Of a DNA stretch of 27,299 nt, positions 9,728-27,299 are shown piece after piece (position 1 is the first letter of the stretch; the number at the start of each line of letters is the position of its first letter). The translations under genes were made by a program, and so were the position numbers. The stretch is from Candidatus Latescibacterota bacterium. Lineage in GTDB: Bacteria; Latescibacterota; UBA2968. Location of the stretch: positions 1 through 27,299 of the forward strand of contig JAYODI010000078.1 in assembly GCA_038279365.1 (NCBI GenBank). Direction: 5' to 3'. Below the pieces are notes generated by a model. That model had not been told where the DNA came from, made no database searches, and saw only the letters and a list, made by a program, of their open reading frames with translations.

Positions 9728-11524
9728 GTGTTTATGTTGTCCGAAGACGATAAGCGCATTCAAGATGCACTTGATCATACGGTACTCCATGCGTTTCGCC
9801 CTGTTTTGATGGGTTTGACTGTCTTGTATTTGATTTTTGCAATCAGCCACAAGTTGGTGTTGCCAAAAGATATTGCTGATTTGATGGTTGCTGTTGCATT
9901 TGGATCAAGTGTGGTTTGTGGCATATTGCGGTGGGTTCTCAAACGTGAGTTTTTGCCTGTTCAACATGCGCATTTGTTGGGCACGGGTGTGGCGGCGATT
10001 ATGTTGGGAAACAGTGCCATCCATTTTTTATTAACAGGCGATTGGTTACAAACAACAAATTTTTTGCTTATTGTCATTGGCATTGCGTGTCTTTTTTTGT
10101 CTCGCCTTTGGTTTGGCCTTGTATGTATGATGGCCATTGGGTCTTGGGCACTGGTTGCGTGGGTGTTACCGCCTTCTCCTGCTTTGCTACATTTTGGGTT
10201 TGCGTTTGTCACGACGTTTTTTTTGGCCATAATCATTTTCCTGATTCGCGTACGCAATTTTCGACGTTTGGAAGCGTTTCGGTTGCTTGATGAAAAACAA
10301 AAAAGAGATTTGGCTGCTGCTTTAGAAATTACCAAAACATCAAACGAAGCACTGGAACATAACAATCGCCAGCTGGCCGAGGCGCGTGATGCAGCAGAAG
10401 TTGCCAGCCGTATCAAAAGTGAATTTTTGGCCAACATGAGCCATGAAATTCGCACGCCACTCAATGCGATTATTGGTTTGGCTGATCTGATGTTACAAAA
10501 CGAATTGCCAGATGATCAGGGTGAAAATATAGCAATGATACAAACATCGGGCATCCATTTGCTCGATATTTTGAACAATATTCTTGATTTTGCTAAAATA
10601 GAAGCAGAGCGGTTAGAACTGGAGTATGCACCCTTTTCTGTGCACGAACAAGTTGTGGCTGTGTATGATATATTGCAAATTGGGGCACGAAAAAAGAATT
10701 TGAAATTTCGTTATGAGGTTGCTGATTGTGTACCGAAGGCACTGATAGGAGATGCTGTGCGCATTCGGCAAGTGTTGCTTAATCTTGTGGGAAATGCCAT
10801 CAAATTCACCCATGAAGGTGAGGTTGACATTGCTGTTCATTGTGTGACACAAACATCACAACAGGCGACTTTACATTTTGTGGTGCGCGATACGGGCATT
10901 GGTTTGTCGGCAGATGAAAAAACACGTATTTTTGAGGCGTTTTCTCAGGCGGACTCATCAACAACACGTGAATATGGTGGCACAGGACTTGGGTTGTCTA
11001 TTTCGGTGCGTTTGATTGAAGCGATGAATGGACGGTTTTGGGTAGAAAGTGAAAAAGGAAGGGGAAGCATTTTTCAATTTGAAGTATCATTTGACATGGC
11101 TGACGCTTTGGCCGAAGCTGTGGCGATACACGTAGATCAGAAGATATATCCGCTTAAGATTTTATTGGCGGAAGATAATGTTGTCAATCAGAGGGTTGCA
11201 ATACGGATGCTCGAAAAGGAAGGACATGTTGTGCGTGTTGTTGGAGATGGTCAGCAGGCTCTGCTGGCGTTGTCGGAGGAACAGTTTGATGTGTTGTTAA
11301 CCGATATACAAATGCCAGAGATGGACGGAGTTGAATTGGCTCAAAAAATTCGTGCTTCTGAAAAAGAAGGTGGGCCTCGTCAAAAGATTATTGCACTCAC
11401 AGCTCATGCCAGTGAAGAAGACCGCCAACTTTGCATCGCATCTGGAATGGACGACTATTTGACCAAACCCATACGAAGGCGTGATCTCATGGTTGTCCTT
11501 CAACAGATTGCAGCACAAAATTAA
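9728..11524 (+). CDS. Membrane-bound hybrid sensor histidine kinase (TM helices-HisKA-HATPase-REC)
   Basis: Several hydrophobic helices, H-box '[11 protein letters not shown]', '[10 protein letters not shown]', 'DTGIG', 'GGTGLGL', and receiver 'AEDN...TDIQMP...KP'. The start may be ATG 9734. Confidence 0.92.
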
Positions 11525-23776: not shown

Positions 23777-24868
23777 ATGAATTTTACACCGAGTGATCAG
23801 CGCATTTTAATTGTGGATGATACCATTAAGAATCTTCAGGTTTTGGGCACGATTCTTGAAAAAGAAGGGTATCAAATTAATGTGGCGCAAAATGGTACAC
23901 AAGCCTTAGAAATTACCCAAAAAGTACAACCCGATTTGGTTTTGTTGGATGTGATGATGCCCGATTTGAATGGGTTTGAGGTGTGCCAGCAACTGAAAGC
24001 GGATGAATCGGTTGCGCATATTCCCATTATTTTTTTGACGGCGCGTACCGAAACTGAAGATTTGGTCAAAGGGTTTGAAATGGGCGCGGTAGATTATGTG
24101 ACCAAACCTTTTAATGCCACAGAATTGTTGGTGCGTGTGCGCACGCATTTGAGCATTCATATGCTTCAAGCGGCACTACGAAAAAGTCTTGAAGACAATG
24201 CGCGATTGCGGCGTGAACAAGAAGCTTTTTTTCGCCATGAACTTAAAAATCGCATTACACCCATTATGGGTTATTCTGATGCATTGCAACATACACAACT
24301 GGATGAGATGCAAAAGCGATGGGTGACGACCATTTGTAACAGCACACAGGATATGTCTGATTTGATAGATGTCTTAAAAGATTTGCAAGATATTGAAGCA
24401 GGCACAATAACGTTGTCTAAGGTTGCTTTGCCATTGAATGATCTGATTCAAAATGCGATTGCTGATGTAGAAGCTTCTTTTGATTTGCCCAATATTCAGT
24501 ATACGCCCCCTGAAGCATCCGTTGTGGTGCAGGTGGATGGTAATTTGGTACGCGGTGTTTTTTATAATCTGGTTAAAAATGCCGTAGAACATGTTGAAAA
24601 ATGTGCTGATGAAGCAGATCGTGTGGTAAAGATTGCGGTGGTGGATGCACCTTTTGCGGTTACAATTACGATTCAAAATGGTGGCAAACCCATTCCTGAA
24701 GATTTGTTGGCAGTGTTTTTTGAAAAGTTTAATACCCATGGTAAACAGGGTGGAACGGGTTTGGGCACGACCTATGCATTTTGGGTTATTCGTGCTCATG
24801 AAGGCGATATTATGGTGAAATCAACAGAAGCAGAAGGTACCACTGTGACCGTAGTTTTGCCAAAGTGA
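23777..24868 (+). CDS. Cytoplasmic hybrid response regulator-histidine kinase (REC-HisKA-HATPase)
   Basis: 'ILIVDD', 'LLDVMMP', 'TKPF', H-box 'RHELKN', 'NLVKNAVE' and 'GGTGLG'. Confidence 0.9.
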   Translation: MNFTPSDQRILIVDDTIKNLQVLGTILEKEGYQINVAQNGTQALEITQKVQPDLVLLDVMMPDLNGFEVCQQLKADESVAHIPIIFLTARTETEDLVKGFEMGAVDYVTKPFNATELLVRVRTHLSIHMLQAALRKSLEDNARLRREQEAFFRHELKNRITPIMGYSDALQHTQLDEMQKRWVTTICNSTQDMSDLIDVLKDLQDIEAGTITLSKVALPLNDLIQNAIADVEASFDLPNIQYTPPEASVVVQVDGNLVRGVFYNLVKNAVEHVEKCADEADRVVKIAVVDAPFAVTITIQNGGKPIPEDLLAVFFEKFNTHGKQGGTGLGTTYAFWVIRAHEGDIMVKSTEAEGTTVTVVLPK

Positions 24869-24892
24869 TTCAAAGAGAAAATTAAAAAAATC

Positions 24893-24921
24893 TTGACATC
24901 ACGATGTTACTGGGCTACATT
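24893..24921 (+). promoter_or_regulatory. sigma70 promoter of the ilv leader/ilvBN transcript
   Basis: TTGACA (24893-24898), a 17-nt spacer and TACATT (24916-24921). Confidence 0.7.
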
Positions 24922-24960
24922 TTGCCCAGTCGAAATACAAATACATTTTTGGAGTTTATT

Positions 24961-25071
24961 GTGACACAATCATTCACCACTGTAAATACCACAATTGTAC
25001 GCCTTGTAACCACAGGCGTAGTAGTCGGTATTGTACGTCTTGTAAAGAGGCAACAGTGGGGTGATTGTTAA
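24961..25071 (+). CDS. Attenuator leader peptide 1 (36 aa, Thr/Val/Ile/Leu-rich)
   Basis: GGAG RBS and GTG start: MTQSFTTVNTTIVRLVTTGVVVGIVRLVKRQQWGDC*. The 3' end contains AACAGTGGG, complementary to the 5' arm of terminator 1. Confidence 0.85.
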   Translation: MTQSFTTVNTTIVRLVTTGVVVGIVRLVKRQQWGDC

Positions 25072-25095
25072 ACTGATTTGAAATAGATGTTCATC

Positions 25096-25127
25096 AGCCC
25101 ACTGTTTAAAAACAGTGGGCTTTTTTT
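25096..25127 (+). terminator. Attenuator terminator 1
   Basis: AGCCCACTGTTT-AA-AAACAGTGGGC followed by T7. Confidence 0.88.
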
Positions 25128-25146
25128 ATTTTGGGGAGGTTATGAA

Positions 25147-25257
25147 ATGAAGCAAACATATCAAACATTTACCACGACCGTAACGCTTGTAACGACTATT
25201 CTTGTAGGCGTAGTAGGTATTGTACGCGCTATTCGAAAATCAGAGGCAGCGTTGTGA
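25147..25257 (+). CDS. Attenuator leader peptide 2 (36 aa, Thr/Val/Ile/Leu-rich)
   Basis: GGAGGT RBS and ATG start: MKQTYQTFTTTVTLVTTILVGVVGIVRAIRKSEAAL*. GGCAGCG near its end is complementary to CGCTGCC in terminator 2. Confidence 0.85.
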   Translation: MKQTYQTFTTTVTLVTTILVGVVGIVRAIRKSEAAL

Positions 25258-25278
25258 TGGGTCACAAATTGGAATTTT

Positions 25279-25318
25279 AAACCCCGCTGCCGAGATGGTC
25301 TCGCAGCGGGGTTTTTTT
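25279..25318 (+). terminator. Attenuator terminator 2
   Basis: AAACCCCGCTGC-C-GAGA-TGG-TCTC-GCAGCGGGG followed by T7. Confidence 0.88.
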
Positions 25319-25337
25319 ATTGATAGAGGAAAATGAG

Positions 25338-27017
25338 ATGGAAATGACAGGTGCAGAAATCATTATCAAATTGTTGGAACGTCAAGGCATTACACATATT
25401 GCAGGGATGCCTGGGGGGGCAAATTTGCCGATGTATGATGCGTTGTATCACAGTGCGATCAAACATGTGTTGGCACGCCATGAACAAGGTGCTGGGTTTA
25501 TGGCACAAGGGATAGCGCGAACGACGGGCAAACCGGCAGTGTGTTTTGCAACGTCGGGGCCTGGGGCAACCAATTTGATTACGGCCATTGCCGATGCCAA
25601 GTTGGATTCGATTCCACTCATTGCCATTACGGGGCAGGTGCCGCTTTCTATGATTGGCACCGATGCGTTTCAAGAGGTGGATACATATGGTTTGACGGTG
25701 CCAATTACGAAGCACAATTTTTTGGTGCGTTCTGCGGCAGAGTTGTTGGAGGTGATTCCCGAAGCATTTCGCATTGCGATGTCTGGTCGGCCTGGGCCTG
25801 TGGTGGTGGATGTGCCCAAGGATGTGCAGTTGCAAAAGGCTGTGTTTGACGCGTTGCCAGAACCTGTTATTGCGGGTGAGGCTGAGACGATTGATGAAAC
25901 GGTAATAGATGCGATGGTGGCGATGATTGAATCGGCCAAACGGCCTCTCTTTTTTGTGGGTGGGGGGATTGTGGCTGCGGGTGCATCGGAATTGGTTTGC
26001 CAGGTGGCAGAAAAAGCGCATTTGCCTACGGTTTCGACTTTGATGGGGTTGGGTGCCATGCCTTGTGACCATCCTTTGTTTTTGGGCATGTTGGGGATGC
26101 ATGGTGCGCGTTATACCAATATGGCGCTTGAGGTGTGCGATTTGATTTTTGCTGTGGGGGTGCGGTTTGATGATCGGGCAACGGGTAAGGTGGCACATTT
26201 TTGCCCTCAGGCTAAGATCATTCATATTGATATTGACGCGAGTGAATTGGGGAAGATCAAACAACCCGTGTTGAGCTTGGTGGCCGATGCCAAAGTGGCA
26301 TTGCAGATGCTTTGTGATCGGTTGCCCAATATTGCTCGGCCCGATTGGGTTGCAAATATTCACAAGTTGAAGATGGATTATCCATTGGCGACACCTGGGG
26401 ATGATGATGTGTTTCAACCGTATGGGGTGATTGCTCATGTGGCAAACGCATTGGATGAATGGACAATTGTGACCACCGATGTGGGGCAACATCAGATGTG
26501 GGTGGCACAGGCGTTTCCATTTCAGAAGGCTGGGCAGTTGCTCACATCGGGTGGGTTGGGGACGATGGGGTTTGGGGTGCCAGCGGCGATTGGTGCGGCT
26601 TTGGCACGGCCCGATTGTACGGTGGTGTGTTTTAGTGGGGATGGTAGTTTTTTGATGAATGTGCAGGAGTTGGCAACCTTGGCAGAGGAGAATTTGAATG
26701 TGAAGATTGTGGTGATGAACAATGGATATTTGGGGATGGTGCGACAACAGCAAACGTTGTTTTATGGGGGGCGTGAAGAGGGGTCTTTTTTTCAGGCACA
26801 GCCCAATCCTGCGCATATTGCGCGGGCATTTGGTGTGCCGGCTTGTGATTTGGGGGATGTGGATGATCCGGTGGGGATGTTGCAGGAGATGTTGCGTGCA
26901 CCTGGGCCGTGTGTGATTAATGCGCCGATTGGTGAAGATGAGATGGTGTTTCCGATGGTGCCGCCGGGTGCGGCGAACAAAGATATGATTGCGGGGGTGG
27001 CTCATGCAAACGCTTGA
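25338..27017 (+). CDS. ilvB: Acetolactate synthase (AHAS) large subunit
   Basis: 'RHEQGAGF', 'TSGPGATN', 'GTDAFQE', 'RFDDRATG', 'DVGQHQMW', 'SGGLGTMG' and ThDP motif 'GDGSFLMN...NNGYLGMVRQQQ'. AGAGGA RBS before ATG 25338. Confidence 0.95.
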   Translation: MEMTGAEIIIKLLERQGITHIAGMPGGANLPMYDALYHSAIKHVLARHEQGAGFMAQGIARTTGKPAVCFATSGPGATNLITAIADAKLDSIPLIAITGQVPLSMIGTDAFQEVDTYGLTVPITKHNFLVRSAAELLEVIPEAFRIAMSGRPGPVVVDVPKDVQLQKAVFDALPEPVIAGEAETIDETVIDAMVAMIESAKRPLFFVGGGIVAAGASELVCQVAEKAHLPTVSTLMGLGAMPCDHPLFLGMLGMHGARYTNMALEVCDLIFAVGVRFDDRATGKVAHFCPQAKIIHIDIDASELGKIKQPVLSLVADAKVALQMLCDRLPNIARPDWVANIHKLKMDYPLATPGDDDVFQPYGVIAHVANALDEWTIVTTDVGQHQMWVAQAFPFQKAGQLLTSGGLGTMGFGVPAAIGAALARPDCTVVCFSGDGSFLMNVQELATLAEENLNVKIVVMNNGYLGMVRQQQTLFYGGREEGSFFQAQPNPAHIARAFGVPACDLGDVDDPVGMLQEMLRAPGPCVINAPIGEDEMVFPMVPPGAANKDMIAGVAHANA

Positions 27018-27299
27018 AGAAAAATGTGAGAAGACGGTTTTGGAGTTGACGGTTGCCAATCATGCGGGGGTGATGTCGCATGTGTGTGGTTTGTTTGCGC
27101 GGCGGGCGTATAATGTGGAGGGGGTTTTGTGTATGCCGGTGGGGAATGGGCAGTGTAGTCGGATTTGGTTGATGGTGAATGAGGTGGATCGGTTGGATCA
27201 GATGATTGCGCAGTTGAGAAAGTTGGAGGATGTGTTTGAGGTGGGAAGGCATGGGGCGGATCATGCGGTGTTTTTGCGATTGGAGGGTTTTTTTCAATA
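27004..27299 (+). CDS. ilvN: Acetolactate synthase small (ACT) subunit; the likely stop codon is cut by the window edge
   Basis: MQTLEEKCEKTVLELTVANHAGVMSHVCGLFARRAYNVEGVLCMPV...LRKLEDV...EGFFQ followed by TA at the window end; overlaps the ilvB stop; not in the ORF track. Confidence 0.92.
   Translation, partial: MQTLEEKCEKTVLELTVANHAGVMSHVCGLFARRAYNVEGVLCMPVGNGQCSRIWLMVNEVDRLDQMIAQLRKLEDVFEVGRHGADHAVFLRLEGFFQ

Follow-up and report, generated by a model that had tools for sequence, protein, structure and literature searches.

In Bacillus subtilis, thrZ encodes a second threonyl-tRNA synthetase and lies behind tandem T-boxes, a case in which a spare enzyme is silenced by same-signal switches, with the T-boxes binding uncharged tRNA directly and needing no translation. 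Among leaders that are read by the ribosome, the two attenuators of the mefA-msrD operon precede different genes. For acetolactate synthase itself, the Escherichia coli ilvBN operon is preceded by the ivbL attenuator, a leader of 32 codons with twelve Val/Leu codons (PMC11187965, available excerpt). Salmonella mgtCBR carries two tandem attenuators, mgtM and mgtP, which its authors describe, in the accessible part of the paper, as a singular example; the two are unrelated, sense ATP and proline, respectively, act additively, and form hairpins unlike intrinsic terminators (PMC3641672). Two ribosome-stalling leaders per resistance gene are described for ermA (ermAL1/ermAL2) and ermB (excerpt of PMC8274638), and the “double-lock” of mefA-msrD places two stalling leaders in a resistance operon (excerpt of bioRxiv 10.1101/2021.11.29.470318). 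Finally, pseudo-cooperative tandem riboswitches line up complete switches for the same signal, every one of them with a terminator, and give a steeper and more digital response, and the available text of the review describing them contains neither “attenuat” nor “leader peptide” (PMC9481103). The accessible portions of PMC5794164 and PMC8632094 describe single attenuators only.

Here, we analyzed a window (the whole 27,299-nucleotide stretch of DNA under study) from a Latescibacterota genome in which two leader-peptide attenuators had been predicted in tandem ahead of ilvBN. Like ivbL, each unit combines a short Val/Leu-rich leader open reading frame (ORF) with a terminator before an AHAS-I-type ilvBN; unlike ivbL, there are two complete units, their leader and terminator sequences differ from the enterobacterial ones, the leaders are Thr-rich with Val codons skewed to GTA, and the operon encodes the second AHAS of its genome. 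As in the available account of mgtCBR, two short ORFs per leader are translated and steer RNA structure and transcription elongation (predicted in our case), but here the units are homologues of each other that would sense the same amino acids, and both come with an intrinsic terminator. The erm and mefA-msrD leaders, as far as the excerpts describe them, differ further in needing antibiotic-induced arrest, and erm control is translational. By analogy, pseudo-cooperative tandem riboswitches appear as the closest functional analogue, with the difference that the predicted sensor here is a translating ribosome and not an aptamer. The original prediction took no tandem of ribosome-stalling attenuators to be known, which is too broad given mgtCBR (PMC3641672) and ermA (PMC8274638); what stands is that neither of these, in the parts available, has duplicated amino-acid leaders with intrinsic terminators. 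Our literature searches returned no doubled classical amino-acid attenuator in series, although comparative-genomics surveys of attenuators (Vitreschak 2004, Lopatovskaya 2010) may list such cases, and nothing on attenuators in Latescibacterota.

Anatomy of the ilvBN leader

The predicted order of one promoter, two complete leader units, and ilvB is borne out, with all coordinates in agreement with the sequence, and both units contain the 36-codon Thr/Val/Ile/Leu-rich ORF, ribosome-binding site, and T7 terminator attributed to them. The features are as follows (all on the forward strand; G000 is this genome, G001, G002, G078, and G079 are phylum relatives, and L-numbers are individual loci).

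24893..24921, +, sigma-70-type promoter TTGACA-17-TACATT, with transcription inferred to start near 24928
24951..24954, +, Shine-Dalgarno-like GGAG of leader 1, kept in G002 and L133
24961..25071, +, leader ORF 1, GTG start, 36 codons (V8 I2 L2 T7), last Val at codon 28
25052..25065, +, antiterminator 1, codons 31-35 of leader 1, partner 25093-25106
25096..25127, +, intrinsic terminator 1, 11-bp stem (25096-25121) and T7 tail (25121-25127), from folding and covariation over 17 units
25133..25139, +, Shine-Dalgarno GGGGAGG of leader 2, kept in G002
25147..25257, +, leader ORF 2, ATG start, 36 codons (V6 I3 L3 T8), last Ile at codon 29
25245..25251, +, antiterminator 2, 7 bp, codons 33-35 of leader 2, partner 25285-25291
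25279..25318, +, intrinsic terminator 2, 12-bp plus 4-bp stem (25279-25314) and T7 tail (25312-25318), from folding and covariation
25338..27017, +, ilvB, acetolactate synthase large subunit (PRK08155), ATG start, 871.8 bits against a cut-off of 870
27004..27299, +, ilvN, small subunit (PRK08178), 148 bits against a cut-off of 128, its stop codon cut by the contig end

We take PRK08155 and PRK08178 to represent the E. coli AHAS I type. The ilvB at 25338 is the second AHAS large subunit of the genome, the paralogue lying on contig C9. Each unit shows those features of an ivbL-type attenuator that can be read from sequence, namely a codon-rich leader led by a Shine-Dalgarno sequence, an intrinsic terminator, an antiterminator that excludes it in folding models (more weakly so in unit 2), and a cognate downstream ilvB/ilvN. 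A four-codon ORF (25333-25347) overlaps the ilvB start out of frame and recurs in G002 and L123 but not in L133; it lies too close to the Shine-Dalgarno sequence for a likely start.

Both terminators fold far better than shuffled sequence (z −6.8 and −6.3, reached by 0 of 200 shuffles each), while the antiterminator fold is at z −2.9 in unit 1 (2/200) and −1.8 in unit 2 (7/200); antiterminator 2 is the statistically weaker, being matched by 15 of 200 shuffles in a separate pairing test, and leader 1 has a GTG start and only a 4-base Shine-Dalgarno match. Equal richness in Val, Ile, Leu, and Thr is found in only 9 of the 4465 short, Shine-Dalgarno-led ORFs of the genome, and across both leaders 13 of 14 Val codons are GTA, against 13.9% in its long ORFs (p 9e-11). 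Searches of Rfam gave 21 weak matches (the best 27.3 bits against a gathering threshold of 65) and no T-box. Metatranscriptome contigs from two runs fall on the upstream gene only, and such contigs show presence, not absence. An assembly artefact was considered and rejected, because 24500-26000 is covered in full, without gaps and with 14 substitutions, by a contig that a different study had assembled; a second contig covers 24764-26000. The tandem feature is real and, as described below, conserved, and it is very probably functional.

Conservation and origin of the pair

IlvB of this type (E ≤ 1e-185) occurs in five of 168 phylum genomes, and two units precede it in all four that retain upstream DNA (G000, G002, G078, and G079); in G001, the ilvB leader is missing from the assembly. 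Metagenomes were searched with a pattern that demanded just one unit, and of the 16 matching loci eight were unrelated, seven lay before ilvB, and one (L132) stops after unit 1. Two terminators are present in 7/7 of the ilvB-linked loci, including L123, which starts within terminator 1 and has leader 1 out of view. After removal of redundancy (L126 repeats G079; L128 and L132 repeat G002), nine distinct loci remain, in three lineages of or near Latescibacterota. G078 belongs to the same class as G000; by source labels, the protein identical to its IlvB is assigned to Ca. Latescibacteria and the one identical to that of L121 to Ca. Handelsmanbacteria. Through its class-level kinship with G078, the window would itself come from Latescibacterota. 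The closest grouping for L130 IlvB is with a protein that its source assigns to Gemmatimonadota. The comparison of related ilvB upstream regions that was proposed with the original prediction hence finds both units in 4/4 genomes and in all seven informative metagenome loci.

The units have been kept as units. Orthologues of leader 1 (31-40 codons) are open in all eight loci that hold it, and those of leader 2 (36-46 codons) occur in nine loci. Over these 17 units, the leaders are 31-46 codons long, the antiterminator lies at the end of the ORF (reached by 0-15 of 200 shuffles), and the spacer from stop codon to terminator is 21-34 nt throughout. Pairing in the terminator stem reaches 97.3%, against 34-57% in slid controls, and at 6 of its 11 pairs both partners have changed, the structure being drawn from the same 17 sequences. 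Start codons are GTG in 7/8 of the first units and ATG in 9/9 of the second, antiterminator 2 has an identical 7 bases in G000, G002, L123, and L133, and in the G000/G002 alignment indels within the leader ORFs are all multiples of 3. An SD-like match was not found for leader 2 of G078. Loci keeping both ORFs, antiterminators, and terminators share only about 67-70% identity in IlvB, in line with the claim that both units are maintained. Because the 20-146 nt that separate the units hold no gene in any of the relatives, a deletion scar was rejected. In G078 and G079, palindromic repeat-like insertions lie between the units and also between unit 2 and ilvB:

L119:1075-1188 and 1366-1500; L120:250-395 and 581-815, palindromic repeat-like insertions of G078/G079

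Elsewhere, ilvB is preceded by one unit or none. Among 80 ilvB-family loci from other taxa, one unit was called in 22, none in 57, and two in one (L039), where the upstream match was judged to be the end of the preceding gene. Closer AHAS-I-type loci (27, from the class of a Binatia genome) gave one unit in 16, none in 11, and two in 0, and single ivbL-like units precede enterobacterial and Desulfobacterota ilvB. The ordinary ilvB of the relatives has one coding-strand model match in 25 of 27 loci and two in 0/27; among five further ordinary ilvB loci the model matched one, and G001 has a single terminator. In G000, the ordinary ilvB on C9 has one unit behind identical promoter hexamers (TTGACA-17-TACATT), and no small-subunit gene adjoins it among ORFs of at least 140 codons:

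L138:2775-2925 (G000:C9), single Val/Thr-rich attenuator before the ordinary ilvB

The best promoter site lies upstream of unit 1 in all eight loci scored, at the same position in relatives, with a score of 18 in six of them. Sites between the units score 11-13.5 in 7/8 loci, and consensus scans found none there that beats shuffles in these seven, which speaks against the independent promoter that had been named as a possible refutation; the eighth locus (L133) has a promoter-like site overlapping terminator 1 (score 16.5, 1% of shuffles). As far as consensus scans go, the arrangement is one promoter and two complete same-signal switches with no gene between.

Sequence comparison finds units 1 and 2 to be homologous, which agrees with the proposed origin by duplication. 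One ancestral tandem, with all first units related, was rejected (AU test, p 0.0046), whereas a unit tree grouped by lineage was not (p 0.28). Such a tree fits repeated duplication or gene conversion, as far as sequences of this kind can suggest; independent duplications are not proven, because the sequences are short, G+C content differs, and gene conversion gives the same tree. In an IlvB tree built from 44 homologues (of 120 listed) together with 16 proteins of the loci and one outgroup, support for a single clade of tandem-bearing IlvBs is 0.44, too low to decide for or against one.

Predicted switching and the relation between the two units

Folding with ribosome masking, which had been suggested as a check, returned a position-dependent switch in 8/8 units tested. 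With the RNA truncated just ahead of the terminator 3′ arm and the ribosome masking 10 nt beyond its A-site codon, the 5′ arm of terminator 1 is captured at P 1.0 for ribosomes at codons 1-27 of leader 1 and at 0.24-0.43 for codons 29-34; for leader 2, capture is at P 0.88 for codons 1-30 and 0.20 at the stop. In all eight units, the arm is captured while the ribosome is in the Val/Ile/Leu/Thr run and released at the last 6-8 codons. On full-length RNA at equilibrium there is no switch, as the terminators win at every ribosome position (P 0.87-0.96), and the decision would therefore have to be kinetic and co-transcriptional. A protector hairpin of the trp type was not found in the eight units; the terminator arm of a ribosome-free leader is still captured upstream (P 0.64-1.0), so that in this model an untranslated leader would still antiterminate.

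We propose that a ribosome reaching the last leader codons would cover the antiterminator, allowing the terminator to form and RNA polymerase to stop. When charged tRNA-Val (probably also tRNA-Ile and tRNA-Leu, and perhaps tRNA-Thr) runs short, the ribosome would stall in the codon run, the leader tail would capture the 5′ arm of the terminator, and transcription would continue. Polymerase would reach ilvBN only after passing both checkpoints, giving a leak close to the product of two leaks and a steeper response, and the two-unit ilvBN would be a back-up AHAS kept in reserve until branched-chain starvation is severe; the ordinary ilvB, by comparison, has a single attenuator. The leader anatomy, its conservation, the computed response to ribosome position, and the recurrence before second-copy enzymes are direct results of this analysis; that the leaders are translated, that transcription ends at both terminators, that the units act independently and sense these amino acids, and that the second AHAS is a back-up are inferences.

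Two independent classical attenuators in series, reading the same signal on one transcript, are probably what this leader contains. The multiplied read-through and tighter repression of the original prediction remain the best reading of homologous, maintained units with no gene or consensus promoter between them. Its other suggestion, an AND-type response to different signals, we abandon: the codon make-up of the leaders is near equal, and this points to one signal checked twice and not to a two-input gate. The 7-8 Thr codons per leader may or may not count in sensing. In the available part of PMC11187965, E. coli ivbL, with at most five Thr codons, shows no response to Thr, and an excerpt of PMC1262725 reports that changing similar codons in a Streptomyces coelicolor ilvB leader had no effect.

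Independence of the units is the less assured part of this, because equilibrium models let antiterminator 1 pair with terminator 2 as well. The prediction that each antiterminator matches only its own terminator holds for antiterminator 2 (own −15.3, cross −7.4) but not for antiterminator 1, which pairs with the terminator 2 arm (−18.2, via a G-U pair) at least as strongly as with its own (−15.8). The units could thus be coupled: after read-through, terminator 1 would refold and the freed antiterminator 1 would capture the 5′ arm of terminator 2, so that stalling on leader 1 would let polymerase through both terminators, with cooperative or OR-like logic. In G000 and in G078-type loci, arm 2 is as good a partner for antiterminator 1 as arm 1, or a better one, and upstream capture reaches 0.86-1.0 in all eight loci when neither ORF is allowed to fold. 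In a model with the first ribosome stalled and the second at its stop codon, capture by antiterminator 1 is at P 0.36-0.97 in G078, G079, L121, and L135, but the same model gives only 0.01-0.04 in G000, G002, L130, and L133. The pairing would also have to bridge 190-330 nt as well as a ribosome and outcompete a local hairpin. The near-identical terminators of G078-type lineages, whose leaders are only about 70% alike, might be read as a sign of coupling, but a stem of identical sequence is found ahead of leuA and valS too, and shared ancestry with a three-way pairing constraint accounts for it. On balance, we regard coupling as unlikely.

Less probable still is that each unit has its own promoter, or that one unit is active beside a neutral duplicate, with terminator 1 mainly ending an upstream transcript. 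Weak or non-sigma-70 promoters escape a consensus scan, and L133 does have its promoter-like site on terminator 1, but in the other seven loci the between-unit site fails to beat shuffles. A response-regulator/kinase gene on the same strand ends upstream (stop at 24868), and no strong terminator was seen between it and the promoter; the upstream genes, however, are not the same in G000 and G078. Against a single active unit stand the preservation of both ORFs, antiterminators, and terminators across loci with diverged IlvB and the recurrence of doubling in seven other gene contexts. That the ORFs are functional small hydrophobic peptides whose mRNAs are simply ended by the terminators is very improbable, for although both peptides run from a hydrophobic core rich in Val, Ile, and Leu into basic residues, no family match was found, length and sequence drift freely over the 31-46 codons, Val codons are skewed to GTA, and sister tandems change their enriched residue with the downstream gene (Lys, Asn/Asp, Trp), unlike a membrane peptide.

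Tandem units before other enzymes

The doubling is not confined to ilvBN, a recurrence that the original prediction did not note. A strict genome scan gave 15 candidates and missed the leaders of the C9 ilvB and of trpS, so its counts are lower bounds. In G000, an extra leuA follows two Leu-rich leaders of 29 and 28 codons, both equipped with a terminator; this second tandem is also present in G001 (L236) and G002 (L142), terminator 2 of the latter being weak (−8 kcal/mol), and the ilv-unit covariance model had no match at 28 other leuA loci. A third tandem in G000, of two Trp-Trp-Trp leaders that both have terminators, precedes a second trpS; roughly 150 nt ahead of the other trpS of this genome (C184) there is a hairpin that resembles a terminator. 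A covariance model of the 17 ilv units matched at least 88 of 132 class genomes, counted among 150 of its 187 matches listed. Same-strand unit pairs less than 500 nt apart occur in 10 of 38 loci chosen from those listed matches and from loci already examined, which were picked and not sampled, include kin that are not independent, and come in part from genomes with 4-11% contamination. The ten pairs precede leuA (three), archaeal-type valS (three), ileS, class II lysS, non-discriminating aspS, and asd (one each), the asd gene itself lying upstream of a class II lysS and its tandem having Lys-rich leaders.

L137:1361-1710 (G000:C142), leuA tandem, leuA at 2233
L262 (G000:C151), trpS tandem, trpS at 9807
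L220, L222, L233, L234, L235, L237, and L247, valS, ileS, lysS, aspS, and asd tandems in five other class genomes

Leader codons match the downstream gene: Leu with leuA, Trp with trpS, Val with valS, Ile with ileS, Lys with lysS and asd, and Asn/Asp with aspS. A second enzyme for the same step is encoded in the genome for every tandem examined (ilvB, leuA, trpS, valS-like, and ileS), with a class I LysRS accompanying the tandem-led class II lysS and other Asp/Asn synthetases accompanying the tandem-led aspS, a count that covers all tandem-led genes except asd. At the loci examined, none of the tandems preceded an enzyme gene known to lack a second copy in its genome, and a single unit is all that precedes some of the second-copy valS genes (e.g., L210). 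In G113, valS and lysS are each in two pieces, and a similar palindromic repeat lies between the units at valS and at ileS.

Other units of this kind were noted in passing. In L122 (1461-1611) and L131, a Cys-rich 30-codon ORF and an intrinsic terminator lie 31 nt before a nitrite/sulfite-reductase-family gene, and this looks like a cysteine-sensing attenuator. His-rich leaders with the same terminator family (L218, L221, L223, L242, L243, and L245) precede a methyltransferase-like gene or one that is presumably hisI-like, with no NCBIfam match at 1e-40. Single units in L211, L216, L219, L238, L251-L253, and G000:C115 precede ABC-transporter, methyltransferase-like, acetyltransferase-like, and transporter-like genes; their leaders have no clear amino-acid bias and may be antibiotic- or stress-stalled.

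Tentatively, and as a possibility that falls a little short of an even chance, one class of Latescibacterota may use a single portable leader-peptide/terminator module, recoded per amino acid and repeatedly doubled before spare isozymes and synthetases, with the number of units setting the starvation threshold. Such a module, recoded for Val, Leu, Ile, Lys, Asn/Asp, and Trp, would resemble the use of T-boxes by Firmicutes, and would mean none or one attenuator for the everyday copy and two for the back-up.

Classical attenuators are usually treated as one-per-operon devices of limited range, and a conserved natural pair would sharpen a ribosome-read switch, making the serial pair a ribosome-based equivalent of tandem riboswitches. 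With its one-unit ilvB and its two-unit ilvBN behind identical promoter hexamers, this genome would provide a ready-made test of multiplication and of the independence of two ribosomes on one nascent RNA, and the units are possible low-leak parts for amino-acid biosensors. For the organisms themselves, the arrangement predicts how isozymes would be ranked under starvation in an uncultured phylum.
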